A stretch of DNA of 64,000 nucleotides, from contig JAFOND010000214.1 of assembly GCA_017418645.1 (NCBI GenBank), positions 2,401 through 66,400 on the forward strand, in the 5' to 3' direction. This document shows positions 12,200 to 64,000 of this stretch, piece after piece. The translations under genes and the position numbers were made by a program. Origin of the DNA: Lachnospiraceae bacterium. Lineage in GTDB: Bacteria; Bacillota; Clostridia; Lachnospirales; Lachnospiraceae. The notes under the pieces are model-generated. The model was not told the origin of the DNA. It was given only the letters and a program-made list of their open reading frames with translations, and searched no databases. The first letter of the stretch is position 1. Every line of letters starts with the position of its first letter.

Positions 12200-12754
12200 A
12201 TGTTTGTATTGATCGTTAACGATGACGCGGAAACTAAAGAAGATGAAAACAGAGCTTCCCGCATCAGGGAGGCGATAAAAAACATCGAGCCGGATATCAG
12301 ATGCGATATCGTTTCGGAACTTCCGGAACCGTCGAAGACAAAGAAAAAGAAAATACGTGTCCAATGCTTCGGAGAATTTGAGGTTTTCGGAAATAACGGA
12401 CCTTTAAAGTTTAAAAGGGCAAGGACAAAAGAACTTTTTGCAATCCTTGTCTGTCACAGAGGGAGCATGCTCTCAATGGGAACGCTTATGTCGATCCTCT
12501 GGGAAGACGGAGAAGATACGGATTCCGACAGGAGTTATTTAAGAAGCATGATAAGCGATCTTAAAAAGACTCTTTTAAACGAAGAGCTTCCGGAACTGGT
12601 TATTAAGAAATACAACAGCATCGGCATAGACACATCATACATCGATTGCGATTATTATGACTTTTTGGAAGGAAAATGGGAGGCGGTCGAGCAATACAAC
12701 GGCCAGTTCATGAGACAGTATCCTTGGGCCGAATATGAGATCTCCCGAATATAA
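12200..12754 (+). CDS. Winged-helix (OmpR/SARP-like) transcriptional regulator with vestigial receiver
   Basis: IRVQCFGEFEVF...FKRARTKELFAILV...ILWE...DLKKTL...CDYYDF...YNGQFMRQYPWA pattern. Confidence 0.8.
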   Translation: MFVLIVNDDAETKEDENRASRIREAIKNIEPDIRCDIVSELPEPSKTKKKKIRVQCFGEFEVFGNNGPLKFKRARTKELFAILVCHRGSMLSMGTLMSILWEDGEDTDSDRSYLRSMISDLKKTLLNEELPELVIKKYNSIGIDTSYIDCDYYDFLEGKWEAVEQYNGQFMRQYPWAEYEISRI

Positions 12755-12757
12755 AAA

Positions 12758-13267
12758 ATGAACGGAAAGAAAAAGAAAAACACTATTACCGTTATTGCGG
12801 TTGCGGTCATGCTCCTGGCAGCACTTGCGGTTCTTCTTATGGTAAGGGGGCTTCCGAATTTTTCCAAAGACAAAGAGTCGAAGGAAGAAAAAGAAGCAAA
12901 GGAACAGGAAGTTTCGCAATTCGGAGTCCTGGGCGAATGGCAGGCCAAAGACAACGAAGACTATATCATCGATGTCTGGAAGGACGGAGAAGGCGAGTTC
13001 CATGCGATAGTAAATTACTCGGAAAAAGAAGACGAGGTTTACTTCTGGGAAATGAGCGGATCCTGGCAGGAATTCCAAAAGGGCTTTTCATACGGGGACT
13101 GCAAAAAGACGCGGGTAACATATGACAGCGAAGGAAAGCCGACGGAAGAAGTTATCTATACCGACGGCGAAGGCTCCATAACCGCCAACGGGGATTCCAT
13201 TAAATGGAAGGACAAAAAAGAGAAATTCGGTGACAAAGTCACTTTTGAATATGTGGGTGAGTATTAA
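12758..13267 (+). CDS. Membrane-anchored/exported hypothetical protein
   Basis: Basic N-terminus, one hydrophobic helix, beta-rich acidic domain. Confidence 0.7.
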   Translation: MNGKKKKNTITVIAVAVMLLAALAVLLMVRGLPNFSKDKESKEEKEAKEQEVSQFGVLGEWQAKDNEDYIIDVWKDGEGEFHAIVNYSEKEDEVYFWEMSGSWQEFQKGFSYGDCKKTRVTYDSEGKPTEEVIYTDGEGSITANGDSIKWKDKKEKFGDKVTFEYVGEY

Positions 13268-13289
13268 AAATTAATAAGGAGAAGGTACC

Positions 13290-15158
13290 ATGCAAAACAC
13301 ACAACTTTATCCGTTTGAACGGAACCGTTATTACCCGAGAAAGCGTATGTCCAGCGGAGATTTCACCGCAGAGCAGACATACATGAACAACAAAAGGCGT
13401 TTCCTGAACGGGCTTATGTTCGGCTCGGGAGTCGTTTGCGGACTTGGAGTGTTTTCTCTTGACGATCTTTCATTCCTGGTTGAAAGCGGTGTTGCTATCG
13501 ACGGAATGGGACGCGAGATCGTTGTTGAGACATCTGATGTTAAAAAGCTTTCCGCAATCGAAGGCTTTGACTCACTTCGTACGAACAAGGCAAGCCTTTG
13601 CCTTCGTTACAACGAAGAAGATGTTCATAAGGTATATTCCATAGATCAGGACGATACGGGTGCTGAATTCCAGTTTAACCGCGTTCGTGAAGGATATACT
13701 CTTTTCCTTATGGATCAGGAAGATATTCCCGAAACCTTTGAAATGGAAGGGGAATTCCTTTTAAGCTCGATCCTTTATTCAAGCATGAACTATACGATAA
13801 CTTTCAGAATGCCGGCATCCGCCTGCCGCGGACATGTTATCCGCTCGGAAGTCATCGTTGAAAAAATCTCGGACGAAGATACCGCGTTAACATTCTCCGC
13901 GAAACTTCAGACACCGACATTCTTATCACCCGACGGTACAAACATTATCTCTATCGACCTTTCCGACATCTCCCTTCAGATGGGAGAAACATCCACATAT
14001 TACTATTGGATGGAAACGGTAGATTCACCCGTTAATACAACAAACATAATCCTTGAGAGCGGATCTTCCAGCGCATTTGAAAATGATATAGCCCAGGAAG
14101 TTTCCGGAAGTTTCATGATGGAAGTTGCTCTTACGGATCTTAAACCGAGACAACTTGTTAACCGCGAGATCGGCCGTATGAATCTTGAAATGAAGAACAT
14201 CGGCGGAATGGGCGATTATGTTCGTCTTGCGGACTTCACCCTCGTTCGTACGGAGAGCGCATACATCATCGAAGATGTTGTGGAAGCAACGGTTAAGCAG
14301 TATGTTTCCGTTCCCGCACAGGATCTTAAGCGCGGTGATTATCTTGAATACTTCATCAAAGATGCGGATATCCATACACCGAAGGCCGTTGCCTATGCGG
14401 GCGGTCCGGTGGAAAGCCAAGCGGGCAAAAAGAATGCGCTTCCGGAAATAGCAACCGGTATCGTGGAAATCCCCTTGGGAGAAGATGCTGCAAGAGGCGA
14501 TATCTTCTATTCGGGAGAGATCATGCACGGTCTCGGAAAAGGAAATGTTTATGTTGAAGTCGGATACGAGCTTATTTCCGATGAAACCGGAAAGAGCAGT
14601 TCCGTTAAGAGCACGATATACGGATCCCCGGATATTTTCGGTAACGATCAGAAGAGTGTCGTTAAGGCGGAGACCGCTGTTCGTGTATTAAACGACAAAG
14701 GAAGTTTCGTTGTCGGAGCAAAGCTTCTTGACACCGTTGATTACATCGTCCTCACATATCGCTGGGTTGCGATCCGCTTCCCGTCGGGCGATGAAGTTAA
14801 AGAAGTTGAGGATATTCCGGGCGCAAGCATTTCTCCGGAGATGCCCACAGTCCGTATGCTTACCAAGGAAAGCCATTTCTTCGGAGTTCGTTTTGAAGGC
14901 ATGGATCCCTGCTCCATCACGTATGAACTTACGGATGAAGGAAGCGGAGATATTACTGCGGACGGCGTTTACACCGCGCCTTCGAAAGCCGGAGTATATG
15001 AGATCCGTATTTACTGCACCGATATGCCTAAGATCTGCACATACGCATATGCGGTTGTTGAAAAGAAGGGCGCAGATGAAAACCAGGCCGAAGCAGCTCC
15101 CGTTGAGCAGGCACTCGGCGGCGGACAGGCTAATATGCTTACAAGCGTCTTGAAGTAA
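13290..15158 (+). CDS. CIS fibre/baseplate-attachment-like protein (Afp13-type N-terminus, C-terminal Ig-like domain)
   Basis: FERNRYY...DFTAEQTYMNNKRR...GSGVVCGL...GVAIDGMGREIVV is typical of CIS fibre N-termini. C-terminal GDITADGVYTAP. Confidence 0.65.
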   Translation: MQNTQLYPFERNRYYPRKRMSSGDFTAEQTYMNNKRRFLNGLMFGSGVVCGLGVFSLDDLSFLVESGVAIDGMGREIVVETSDVKKLSAIEGFDSLRTNKASLCLRYNEEDVHKVYSIDQDDTGAEFQFNRVREGYTLFLMDQEDIPETFEMEGEFLLSSILYSSMNYTITFRMPASACRGHVIRSEVIVEKISDEDTALTFSAKLQTPTFLSPDGTNIISIDLSDISLQMGETSTYYYWMETVDSPVNTTNIILESGSSSAFENDIAQEVSGSFMMEVALTDLKPRQLVNREIGRMNLEMKNIGGMGDYVRLADFTLVRTESAYIIEDVVEATVKQYVSVPAQDLKRGDYLEYFIKDADIHTPKAVAYAGGPVESQAGKKNALPEIATGIVEIPLGEDAARGDIFYSGEIMHGLGKGNVYVEVGYELISDETGKSSSVKSTIYGSPDIFGNDQKSVVKAETAVRVLNDKGSFVVGAKLLDTVDYIVLTYRWVAIRFPSGDEVKEVEDIPGASISPEMPTVRMLTKESHFFGVRFEGMDPCSITYELTDEGSGDITADGVYTAPSKAGVYEIRIYCTDMPKICTYAYAVVEKKGADENQAEAAPVEQALGGGQANMLTSVLK

Positions 15159-15182
15159 TGATTAAATGAGGAGGAGCGTATT

Positions 15183-62950: not shown

Positions 62951-62952
62951 AC

Positions 62953-62983
62953 AAGCGCTCCCCAGCAAACGGGGGGCGTTTTT
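62953..62983 (+). terminator. Rho-independent terminator
   Basis: AAGCGCTCCCC-AGCAAAC-GGGGGGCGTTT followed by further Ts. Confidence 0.75.
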
Positions 62984-62988
62984 GATTT

Positions 62989-63021
62989 GGTGGACATCTG
63001 TTGGACTCGTTGTAATATAAT
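62989..63021 (+). promoter_or_regulatory. Direct-repeat operator plus -10 (variant motif)
   Basis: GGTGGACATCT-GTTGGACTCGTTGTAA-TATAAT: same 11-bp period and 16-bp offset to the -10 as the other two sites. Confidence 0.65.
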
Positions 63022-63045
63022 GGAGATCGTTGGAGGAATAGTATT

Positions 63046-64000
63046 ATGAAAAATAAAAACGACGAACTCTTATACAAACAGCAGGAAAAACAGGAACCGG
63101 TCTTTAAAGTTGAGGAAAAGCGCGAAGACGAATGGGTGGAAGTATCGCGTGAACGTTTCGAGACCCAGACCAATATGGAAAAGCAGCGCATTGCCATGGA
63201 ACAGCAGCAGCGCTTTGCCATGGAACAGCAGCAGAACCAGACTGCAAACAAACAGCGAAGCAAGACGGCAATGGTGGGCAAGGAGCGCTTCGAAGAAGGA
63301 AAGAGCGAAGAATTAAAGTCCAGGATCACGGATTACATAAAGAATACAAAGACTGCAAAGGACGGCAGTTTTCTTACCCATGCTCCCAGCAATAGCCAGT
63401 TTAAAAAGCGCTTTAAGGATTATTTTACGGGACGTCTTGACGAGCAGAAGCGTCGTGAAAAGATGTTCAACAAAAAGTCACGTCTCTATCAGAAGACGTT
63501 AAATGCAGACCGCGTAAACGAGGCGGAAGCAAATATCAAAGAGGACTTTTCGTATGCCCTCGAACTCTTAAATCAGAACGATCATGAAGAATTATCCCGG
63601 GAAGATTTTACGGATTTTGCCGCATTTATCGATAAACAGGCAACGGTCACGGAGAATCTTGATCTTTGTAAGGCTCTTTCAAATTGCGATACGAATGATG
63701 ATGCCGCATTTGATCTCATAAATGCCCTGACGGAAAAGCTGTTTAAGATAGACATAAGTTCCATTAATCTTGAAACGGATACGGATATCGCAAAGAATGC
63801 ACCGATGCTGGAAAAGATCAAGGCACAGGTTGCTGCTTTCGACAGTATTACCGCACGGCATGATCTTATTAACAGGATAGATCCGGAGGCTGCGGAAGAG
63901 ATAAACACAAAGCTTGAATCTCTCCGTACAATAGCGGCGTACTACAGTGTAAAAAAAGAGATCATGAATGACGAGTATTACAGAAGTCATTACAATCATG
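63046..64000 (+). CDS. N-terminal part of a hypothetical effector-like protein (3'-truncated; absent from the ORF track)
   Basis: RBS GGAGG and ATG at 63046 (MKNKNDELLYKQQEKQ...); the frame is open to the window end. Confidence 0.8.
   Translation, partial: MKNKNDELLYKQQEKQEPVFKVEEKREDEWVEVSRERFETQTNMEKQRIAMEQQQRFAMEQQQNQTANKQRSKTAMVGKERFEEGKSEELKSRITDYIKNTKTAKDGSFLTHAPSNSQFKKRFKDYFTGRLDEQKRREKMFNKKSRLYQKTLNADRVNEAEANIKEDFSYALELLNQNDHEELSREDFTDFAAFIDKQATVTENLDLCKALSNCDTNDDAAFDLINALTEKLFKIDISSINLETDTDIAKNAPMLEKIKAQVAAFDSITARHDLINRIDPEAAEEINTKLESLRTIAAYYSVKKEIMNDEYYRSHYNH
63184..63231 (+). repeat. 24-bp tandem duplication in coding sequence
   Basis: CAGCGC(A/T)TTGCCATGGAACAGCAG twice, encoding QR(I/F)AMEQQ. 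Confidence 0.85.

Follow-up and report, generated by a model that had tools for sequence, protein, structure and literature searches.

It is an open question how bacteria that have one membrane and a wall of peptidoglycan can dock, trigger and fire a contractile injection system (CIS), for which the only available clues are the membrane protein CisA of Streptomyces and a candidate anchor in haloarchaea. The question is raised by a locus on contig JAFOND010000214.1 of a Lachnospiraceae bacterium (assembly GCA_017418645.1), where a stretch of 64,000 nucleotides (nt), hereafter the window, encodes a complete headless CIS together with membrane and secreted proteins. The interpretation that we favour, with about even confidence, is that this is a native CIS equipped with a lineage-specific envelope module for membrane docking or triggering. 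Genes are named by their start positions within the window and all those of the CIS region are on the + strand (Table 1); families were assigned by Pfam and NCBIfam scans, and membrane segments and signal peptides from hydropathy.

The features by which the CIS superfamily is recognized are readily apparent between 32.9 and 54.6 kb: a sheath (Cis2) with an inner tube (Cis1); a gp25-like sheath initiator (Cis9), Cis11, Cis12 and a VgrG-related spike (Cis8) with a PAAR-like tip; and a Cis16 cap with a Cis15 ATPase. With the tube initiators, a second Cis11 and the Cis13 encoded upstream, these make up a complete headless CIS, and all core open reading frames (ORFs) are intact. The first-pass annotation of this DNA, made from the letters alone, had described a headless contractile tail gene set with DUF4255, DUF4280 and an Afp15-like ATPase, and Pfam and NCBIfam bear this out. 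The spike is divided between two genes, positions 153-347 of the NF033848 model matching the first and positions 367-543 the second. Both Cis11 paralogues match PDB entry 9gtp_1K (E-values of 3e-10 and 1e-12), and the first (45331-48450) begins with an extension of ~700 residues that precedes its baseplate-J region; extensions of Cis11 make up the cage through which membrane-attached CISs touch the membrane. The 398- and 664-residue proteins encoded downstream of the tube gene are kept in 70 and 60 of 80 loci from relatives, respectively, the larger at the tape-measure position. The neighbouring 120-residue and DUF6760 ORFs overlap by 58 nt, and the pair has the same spacing in 78 of the 80.

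No match to capsid, terminase, portal, integrase, holin or endolysin families was found among the 42 co-oriented ORFs that extend from 12.2 kb to the window end, as the first-pass annotation had reported for all of these except portal. That annotation allowed that head genes might lie just outside the window. The contig ends 405 bp past it and is probably continued by contig C64 of the same assembly (C-numbers denote contigs of this assembly), which overlaps its last 539 bases at 98% identity; there are no head genes in the 20 kb of C64 read, which contain five large ORFs. Capsid, terminase and portal are also missing from the 25 commonest families among 123 ORFs located 3′ of the ATPase gene in 28 relatives, a tally in which single-member families were not listed.

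In a PDB search, the best solved matches of the sheath are 9ezm (E 2e-102) and 8bky/8bl4 (~1e-95), as compared with E-values of 1e-30 to 1e-55 for Pvc2 and Afp2-4, the matches to Afp, PVC, AlgoCIS and Anabaena being far weaker. Entries 8bky and 8bl4 are listed with 9gtp and 9gts, which we take to be the Streptomyces CIS. The 9ezm entry is named once in a paper on the membrane-bound, type VI secretion system (T6SS)-like CIS of Halogeometricum borinquense (PMC11566945). By this comparison the nearest solved sheaths come from cell-bound CISs, and the window CIS appears to be native to the Lachnospiraceae and to belong to a lineage that also holds the cytoplasmic CIS of Streptomyces and the T6SS-like CIS of haloarchaea. 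Phage sheaths are at most 37% identical to the window sheath, and no sheath relative was found in IMG/VR. The sheath was found in 80 species-level genomes, with identities of 62-94% in ~70 named Lachnospiraceae and allied genera and of 50-53% in the most distant loci. It is present in 40 of 401 evenly sampled Lachnospiraceae genera, and related loci occur in the Oscillospiraceae. CIS and extracellular CIS (eCIS) loci in Clostridia have been catalogued (PMC6899500; PMC8213781; 10.1101/2025.07.29.667580), and a validated eCIS-associated toxin and an eCIS locus are documented in Clostridia such as Ruminiclostridium cellulolyticum (PMC8213781).

The genes at 13.3-19.8 kb and 25.4-32.8 kb belong to the CIS, and their homologues sit beside or inside the CIS operon in the fetched Lachnospiraceae relatives and in Oscillospiraceae. 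When all window proteins were compared by tblastn with the 80 sheath-centred loci, many of which are cut by the 10-kb flank limit, a recurrent order was apparent in dozens of Lachnospiraceae species: 13290, 15183, 16061, 18535, one further gene (TolC-like), a 25443/29797-like gene, cis16, 33548, the PAAR-like gene and the sheath gene. Co-oriented homologues of 16061, 18535 and the 25443 family are located upstream in 48, 51 and 55 of the 80 loci, respectively. The ATPase block precedes the module in three loci (L100, L101 and L133; labels L001-L189 denote loci fetched from relatives), so that the module lies between the ATPase gene and cis16. The module is inside the operon in L183-L186, which come from Intestinimonas butyriciproducens and three further Clostridia, in the order cis12, 13290 homologue, receptor-like, MORN, cis16, PAAR-like and ATPase, and in L069 and L073 the module genes are nearby in the other orientation. 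Both sets of genes therefore travel with the tail genes, the synteny that the first-pass annotation had proposed to check. Of the 31 genomes with a homologue of 16061 among the 401 genera, 29 also have the sheath, a profile search added one more, and the two genes are always on the same contig or on separate short contigs in fragmented assemblies. As four sheath-positive genomes (G118, G143, G266 and G159) keep Cis13 and the MORN protein upstream of the sheath with no receptor found, the minimal conserved module appears to be Cis13 and the MORN protein, probably with 15183, the receptor being a frequent addition.

Of the earlier suggestion that the 13-33 kb genes form a trans-envelope part of the machine, the linkage to the CIS stands, and the first gene drops out, as 13290 encodes a Cis13 homologue and no membrane protein. 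Residues 8-145 match positions 3-139 of CIS13_fam (NF053767; E 5.8e-23) with 81.7 bits, below the curated equivalog cut-off of 370 bits that marks full-length membership. The N-terminal domain is, by this match, homologous to Cis13 and the remainder seems to be lineage-specific. This partial match, and the canonical position of the gene after cis12 in the Oscillospiraceae loci L183-L186, are the reasons for regarding 13290 as the Cis13 of the system. A structural model of the protein (m9ad3ce32fa2f; mean predicted local distance difference test (pLDDT) score of 74) is beta-rich, and its Foldseek matches are generic multi-domain proteins of the immunoglobulin (Ig)-like type with low TM scores, a modelling result that does not separate a target-binding fibre from a membrane link. 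Neither Cis13 nor Cis12 has a sequence relative in the PDB.

Downstream of Cis13, 15183 is predicted to have a cytoplasmic domain of ~235 residues, a C-terminal transmembrane helix and 27 residues outside. The protein has no Pfam match; its Atlas model aligns with Pkinase clusters at TM scores of 0.56-0.59 over ~210 residues, and an Atlas feature search returned YukC/EssB at 0.91. Because HRD and DFG motifs are not seen in the consensus of 30 homologues, 15183 is probably a pseudokinase. In relatives, the two genes abut or overlap, and the Cis13 gene appears to be translationally coupled to that of the membrane-tethered 15183. Complex prediction for full-length Cis13 with the cytoplasmic domain of 15183 gave a score of 0.43 (median of three runs), as compared with 0.02 for the best control; the runs agree in at least 53% of the contacts, and the pLDDT of the partner is at least 79. 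Of 80 solved complexes, 58 attained the mark set for such scores, as did 2 of 110 mismatched pairs; with scores of 0.60 or less, only 7 of those 80 complexes attained it, together with both of the passing mismatches, although these calibration counts apply only roughly to a prediction that used its own alignments. The predicted complex gives weak support to a link between baseplate and membrane, raising its odds slightly.

The receptor-type protein 16061 has, by hydropathy and the positive-inside rule, a first transmembrane helix, an ectodomain of ~240 residues, a hairpin of the second and third helices, an ectodomain of ~130 residues and a last helix, which leads into a HAMP-like segment and, in the cytoplasm, ~330 residues of C-terminal region. 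Its Atlas neighbours are receptors with HAMP and Guanylate_cyc domains. For a model of residues 486-819 (pLDDT 85, predicted TM score 0.77), all of the top 50 PDB Foldseek matches are adenylate or guanylate cyclases, with E-values down to 8e-10 and TM scores by target of 0.6-0.73 for isolated domains. None of 20 members of the family matches Pfam Guanylate_cyc (PF00211), and the profile of the C-terminal domain had no match in the PDB nor, by hhalign, to the true cyclase of this genome. The metal-binding Asp and the transition-state Asn/Arg motifs of cyclases are not recognizable in the family consensus, as read from the alignment with no superposition, and the cyclase-fold output domain has probably lost catalysis. 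The MORN-repeat protein 18535 has a conserved, strongly basic N-terminus of 68 residues, cytoplasmic by the positive-inside rule, one transmembrane segment and a MORN ectodomain. The co-oriented membrane proteins thus number four (12758, 15183, 16061 and 18535) and not three, as had been counted at first, and the two giants reported with them, 25443 and 29797, do carry signal peptides. Both giants match the same single ORF in most relatives (850-1050 residues). No relative of 25443 was found in Pfam, NCBIfam, the Atlas or the PDB, where the giant family gave only low-complexity matches to Gly-rich linkers, and one relative has a weak C-terminal match to Cu_amine_oxidN1 (E 0.005).

On the interpretation that we favour, particles would be built in the cytoplasm, where the AAA ATPase would assemble or load them, and would be delivered to the membrane with the baseplate leading, by way of Cis13 and of those portions of 15183 and 18535 that face the cytoplasm. 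The ectodomains of 16061 would sense a cue from the envelope or from outside, to be relayed by the HAMP segment to the cyclase-fold domain, whose signal, probably non-catalytic, would gate docking or firing. The MORN ectodomain and the giants, joined in most relatives by the TolC-like protein, may label the wall over the place of docking or remodel it there. Expression would be set by the STAS protein, which in relatives has an RsbW-like kinase partner, and by the winged-helix regulators, and the large downstream ORFs, each paired with a GNAT, would be cargo modules. Firing could be outward, as in a T6SS, or against the cell's own envelope, as in Streptomyces, both being allowed. No family match to TssJ-TssL-TssM, TssK or ClpV was found in any window ORF, and T6SS-like operation is still compatible with this.

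Several observations weigh against membrane docking. The cap, the ATPase and the genes at the tape-measure position are equally typical of released eCISs, and the C-terminus of Cis13 is modelled as a succession of Ig-like domains, which is also how fibres that bind targets are built. The Cis13-15183 score falls in a weak band, and the cyclase and kinase assignments come only from predicted folds, the sequence-level tests having failed. Given kinase-like and HAMP/cyclase-like folds, a role as sensor or trigger is just as likely as that of a structural trans-envelope channel. The giants have no recognizable fold or wall-binding domain, apart from the one weak match in a relative, and the receptor cannot be essential to the machine, since it was not found in at least four CIS genomes. 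Both the presence of particles at the membrane and contact between module and baseplate are conjectural.

The main rival is a classical eCIS, freed by lysis of a subpopulation, with Ig-like Cis13 fibres that bind targets and a module for control of production, release or self-protection. This is a serious possibility, to which we give clearly less credence than to membrane docking. In its favour, the locus has a cap, an AAA ATPase and a PAAR-like tip, its Cis13, with Ig-like domains, is fibre-like, an eCIS locus with a validated toxin is known in Clostridia (PMC8213781), and the signalling folds in the module fit regulation. However, no holin or endolysin was found in the operon, nor among the families shared by at least two downstream ORFs in relatives, and the nearest solved sheaths are from cell-bound systems. 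The apparent translational coupling of the Cis13 gene to a membrane-tethered protein and, weakly, the complex prediction also argue for attachment over release.

It is rather unlikely that Lachnospiraceae and related Clostridia operate a docked, T6SS-like CIS through the Gram-positive wall in which the dead kinase and the dead-cyclase receptor would constitute the docking and trigger complex, the MORN protein, TolC-like protein and giants a dedicated peptidoglycan port, and, in the sub-clade of this genome, an exported Cys-rich peptide under common regulation with the CIS a feedback on the receptor. Somewhat less probable again is an intracellular device of the Streptomyces type, fired at the cell's own membrane when the module senses an envelope-stress or developmental signal and resulting in regulated death or in the timing of sporulation. 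In favour of it, the nearest entries to the sheath and to Cis11 are 8bky/8bl4 and 9gtp, the MORN protein shares the topology of CisA (cytoplasmic N-terminus and outside C-terminal domain), and genes for STAS proteins, RsbW-like kinases and SpoIIE-type phosphatases recur in the loci of relatives, consistent with the partner-switching logic of sporulation and stress responses. The large, variable, effector-like ORFs and the PAAR-like tip are, however, a better fit to delivery into another cell, and many carriers are rumen bacteria. That the accessory genes are mere neighbours, or the whole locus a decaying prophage tail, is suggested by one frameshifted GNAT gene and by flanking contexts that differ between genomes but is highly improbable given the synteny and co-occurrence across two families and several operon permutations, the intact core ORFs, the lack of head or integration genes in the window ORFs and the C64 stretch read, and a sheath that is 62-94% identical across many Lachnospiraceae versus no more than 37% to that of any phage.

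Three cell-bound CISs provide the closest comparisons for the envelope module. The T6SS-like CIS of H. borinquense (PMC11566945) resembles that of the window in having two cis11 genes, a single membrane and the best solved sheath match. A part in membrane attachment has been proposed for its Cis12 and Cis13, and a conserved multi-pass membrane protein, Hbor_38620, is encoded upstream of the core cluster (PMC11566945). That anchor candidate is described as having six transmembrane helices and a small cytoplasmic domain, in contrast to the three different membrane proteins and the giants described here, and the haloarchaeal envelope is an S-layer, whereas here it is peptidoglycan. With Streptomyces coelicolor (PMC10066040), the window shares a Gram-positive host and close sheath and Cis11 sequences. 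Firing in Streptomyces depends on CisA (10.1101/2024.06.25.600559), a conserved bitopic protein whose gene accompanies those of the CIS and whose N-terminus lies in the cytoplasm and C-terminal domain outside, and the function of the Streptomyces CIS is in cell death and development (PMC10066040; 10.1101/2024.06.25.600559). The likeness of 18535 to CisA is one of topology only, as CisA has a long, disordered N-terminus and a substrate-binding-like C-terminal domain, whereas 18535 has a short, conserved, basic N-terminus and MORN repeats outside. Beyond the Streptomyces arrangement, the window has sensor-like proteins and secreted giants, to which relatives add a TolC-like protein. The thylakoid-anchored CIS of Anabaena (PMC8894136) also stays in the cell and is attached to the membrane through baseplate extensions, as might be compared with the ~700-residue extension of Cis11 here, but this host has no thylakoids, the membrane partners differ, and no Cis19 or Cis6 homologue was found in the family scans.

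The Afp and PVC eCISs have a core composed of the same parts, the DUF4255 cap and the AAA ATPase among them. They differ from the window CIS in gene order, which is permuted here (cis13, cap and PAAR first), and in that the window has a split spike, two Cis11 proteins and an envelope module, and no Afp/PVC-type fibre or DUF4157 cargo marker was seen. EssB/YukC of the Firmicute type VII system has, like 15183, a cytoplasmic pseudokinase fold, one transmembrane helix and a place in a secretion-machine cluster; the likeness is architectural only, 15183 having just 27 residues outside and no Pfam YukC match.

In most relatives, the region between the MORN and giant genes encodes a secreted protein of 630-700 residues that matches Pfam OEP (TolC-like) with E-values of 1e-5 to 2e-13. 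A search of the window for this gene was negative, and a homologue 36% identical to the protein in relatives spans two short contigs of the same assembly, C202 (3746-4000) and C242 (whole, minus strand), where it follows an ORF of more than 1005 residues.

In the window, this region is occupied by the peptide cassette. The cassette had been annotated as a ribosomally synthesized and post-translationally modified peptide (RiPP) cassette of the system. Its existence is supported by a SPASM-domain radical SAM enzyme of the CxxxCxxC type, by a precursor with a GG leader and by a C39-ABC exporter with a second ABC subunit; its place in the conserved system is not, as cassette genes have no match in the 80 sheath-centred loci. 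The maturase has CNLNCLHC at residues 100-107 and a C-terminal Cys cluster, its SPASM match being just under the Pfam cut-off (19.9 versus 21.5 bits), and tblastn returned no match to it in L001-L189, so that this is the only genome with the gene among the fetched loci. The same slot in L164 (metagenome-assembled genome (MAG) RUI515) encodes a C39 exporter (47% identity), a second exporter (36%) and a precursor (44%) with no radical SAM gene, which rules out a cassette wholly unique to this genome, and something else occupies the slot in L162, another close relative. With no match in the 80 loci, a partial cassette in L164 and other content in L162, the cassette appears to be a sub-clade replacement in a variable slot and no part of the conserved system. 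The precursor core has two CxxC motifs arranged as in a zinc ribbon and conserved between the window and L164 (20516-20911). ABC matches between the STAS and ATPase genes in relatives were considered as exporter orthologues and rejected, as they are small FtsE-like ABC ATPases with no relation to the C39 exporters.

A putative operator-promoter element follows the cassette exporters and recurs ahead of cis16. The two copies, the only ones in the window, agree at 27 of 33 positions, 21 of these being among the last 22. In the 6.7 Mb of relatives' loci (both strands), the 12-base pattern occurs three times, at L001:4645 (just upstream of cis16), L097:5780 and L097:6180, as compared with ~0.4 occurrences expected, each with a -10-like hexamer. 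The pattern in relatives is confined to the sub-clade with winged-helix proteins related to 12200 and 61847. The precursor/giant unit and the structural operon appear to be under the same operator-promoter, which 12200 and 61847 are the obvious candidates to bind. These two proteins are paralogues found in this sub-clade alone, and 12200 is kept upstream of cis13 only in the closest sub-clade (L161-L165).

Table 1. Features of the locus from 12.2 kb to the end of the window, in window coordinates (E, E-value).
Feature	Coordinates	Strand	Evidence or remark
Winged-helix regulator (OmpR/SARP-type C-terminal domain) with no receiver domain	12200..12754	+	Trans_reg_C E 1.2e-4, below Pfam cut-off
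Small bitopic membrane protein	12758..13267	+	transmembrane segment at residues 10-28; kept only in close sub-clade
Cis13 homologue: CIS13-type N-terminal domain, then Ig-like beta-sandwiches	13290..15158	+	NCBIfam CIS13_fam
Tail-anchored membrane protein with cytoplasmic protein-kinase-like domain	15183..16031	+	transmembrane segment at residues 237-255; predicted fold
Receptor-type membrane protein: two ectodomains, HAMP-like segment, class III cyclase-fold domain, TPR-like tail	16061..18520	+	predicted fold
Bitopic MORN-repeat protein	18535..19776	+	MORN E 2.7e-6; transmembrane segment at residues 69-87; also in CIS genomes without the receptor
Radical SAM/SPASM maturase	19795..21258	+	Radical_SAM 1.3e-16, SPASM 9e-4
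C39-peptidase ABC exporter	21255..23318	+	Peptidase_C39 1.6e-32, ABC_membrane, ABC_tran
Second ABC exporter subunit	23315..24913	+	ABC_membrane, ABC_tran
Terminator-like hairpin and T run, putative end of first transcription unit	24901..24929	+	read from sequence
Putative operator/promoter copy 1: GTTGC-N6-GTTGCAC then TAAAAT	24934..24966	+	ahead of precursor/giant unit
Nif11-like GG-leader precursor, 110 residues, core ~60 residues	25086..25418	+	translation
Secreted giant protein 1, 1443 residues	25443..29774	+	signal peptide; directly upstream of cis16
Secreted giant protein 2, 1011 residues from inner ATG	29797..32832	+	signal peptide; tandem paralogue of 25443
Putative operator/promoter copy 2	32863..32895	+	ahead of cis16 and structural operon
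Cis16 tail cap (Pvc16_N/DUF4255)	32937..33551	+	E 4.2e-26
Conserved protein between cap and PAAR-like gene	33548..34294	+	present in 68 of 80 loci; no family match
DUF4280 PAAR-like spike tip	34319..34705	+	E 1.2e-25
Sheath (Cis2)	34739..36511	+	Phage_sheath_1, Phage_sheath_1C
Inner tube (Cis1)	36531..37037	+	Phage_T4_gp19, E 3.3e-30
Two small ORFs, 120 residues and 87-residue DUF6760 (at 37513)	37208..37776	+	DUF6760 1.2e-15
398-residue protein with tube-like N-terminus and 664-residue protein	37789..41006	+	first: weak gp19/TIGR02241 matches
Two CIS_tube-domain tube-initiator proteins (41010, 41958)	41010..42860	+	E 1.9e-9, 4.3e-14
VgrG-related spike (Cis8) in two genes (42866, 44045)	42866..44878	+	NF033848; Phage_base_V 5e-19
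gp25-like sheath initiator (Cis9)	44898..45365	+	E 4.7e-18
Two Cis11 (baseplate J-like) paralogues (45331, 48470)	45331..50569	+	TIGR02243 ~1e-21 each
Cis12-like baseplate wedge protein	50581..51678	+	CIS12_fam 4.9e-20 (partial); Tail_P2_I
STAS-domain protein, anti-sigma antagonist type	51696..51995	+	E 3.8e-18
Cis15-type AAA ATPase	52056..54605	+	AAA 4.7e-28; Cdc48/p97-like by PDB search
GNAT (285 residues), 407-residue ORF, 85-residue small protein, second GNAT (285 residues)	54605..57827	+	GNATs at 54605, 56970
Gln-rich 107-residue ORF	57841..58164	+	no family match
GNAT-containing gene, ~620 residues, frameshift near 58950-59190	58193..60065	+	two overlapping frames here
Two multi-pass membrane proteins (60065, 60777)	60065..61838	+	six and four transmembrane segments
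Winged-helix and GNAT fusion protein	61847..62950	+	family scan
Variant operator-like element: GGTGGAC-N4-GTTGGAC then TATAAT	62989..63021	+	ahead of last large ORF
Start of large effector-like ORF, runs off window and contig	63046..64000	+	probably continues on C64, at least 1130 residues

The junctions between the co-oriented ORFs are short or overlapping, with gaps mostly of no more than 30 nt; the only larger ones are of 172 nt before 25086, 104 nt before 32937, 170 nt before 37208 and 95 nt before 63046. The first 12 kb of the window have housekeeping genes (HypD, a hybrid histidine kinase, a solute-binding protein, GalT and UDP-glucose pyrophosphorylase) and, on the opposite strand, a gene for a SleB-type hydrolase that is not kept beside the CIS in relatives.

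Downstream of the ATPase gene, the region had been described as a GNAT-cargo array. The pairing of GNATs with large ORFs holds across the lineage: homologues of the window GNATs were detected by tblastn in only 6 of the 80 loci, GNAT is the commonest Pfam family (15 members) among the 123 ORFs 3′ of the ATPase gene in 28 relatives, and an iterated hidden Markov model search recovered GNATs of the ~285-residue type from at least 17 of 34 loci, where they often lie between ORFs of 900-2300 residues. Because Pfam returned no domain and no toxin for six giant ORFs located 3′ of the ATPase gene in relatives, we infer the cargo role of the large ORFs from position. If C64 is the continuation, it completes an ORF of at least 1130 residues, followed by another GNAT and by ORFs of 2268, 953 and 1219 residues. 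The 2268-residue ORF (minus strand, 10217-17023 of L190, which is C64:13911-33910) has a weak PI3/PI4-kinase-like match, and the 1219-residue ORF (L190 minus strand, 3482-7141) has ABC1 kinase-like and TCAD9 matches, possibly enzymatic domains of effectors. The GNAT-containing gene at 58193 is a single ORF in relatives (L085:12922-14790, 622 residues; L113:18221-20164, 647 residues), and its split in the window is either a real frameshift or an error of the MAG assembly. It forms a trio with the two multi-pass membrane proteins that is also present in L085 and L113. A homologue of the 85-residue protein (56694) is immediately upstream of the ATPase gene in 46 of 80 relatives.

Of 80 loci centred on the ATPase gene, 62 have the STAS gene. 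Downstream of it, relatives encode a small ABC-type ATPase and an RsbW-like HATPase_c_2 kinase, the two being fused in some of them; a partner-switching set of this kind is unusual for a CIS operon, and the window keeps only STAS. The arrangements in relatives are located at L086:6897-8078, L150:8642-9734 and L109:7448-8999; in Butyrivibrio sp. FCS014, STAS is followed instead by a membrane HATPase_c protein and an SH3_3 protein. Genes for SpoIIE-type phosphatases recur downstream in relatives. Elsewhere in the assembly, four contigs without a sheath have related genes: C196 encodes homologues of STAS (43%) and the AAA ATPase (35%) with 60065/60777-like membrane proteins, C46 a 12758-like protein beside an ATPase homologue (40%), C14 an ATPase homologue (39%) and C160 60065/60777-like membrane proteins.

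CIS loci in Clostridia and membrane adaptors elsewhere were already known, and literature searches found no paper on any Lachnospiraceae CIS and no published description of the envelope module. The locus type is a defined and widespread candidate answer to how a CIS is docked in bacteria with one membrane and a peptidoglycan wall, and its cultured carriers include Butyrivibrio sp. FCS014, Pseudobutyrivibrio sp. MD2005, Lachnospiraceae bacteria XBB2008 and AB2028, and Intestinimonas butyriciproducens An565. The large effector-like proteins and their GNAT partners may hold new biology, and the system could influence the rumen and gut communities in which its carriers abound.

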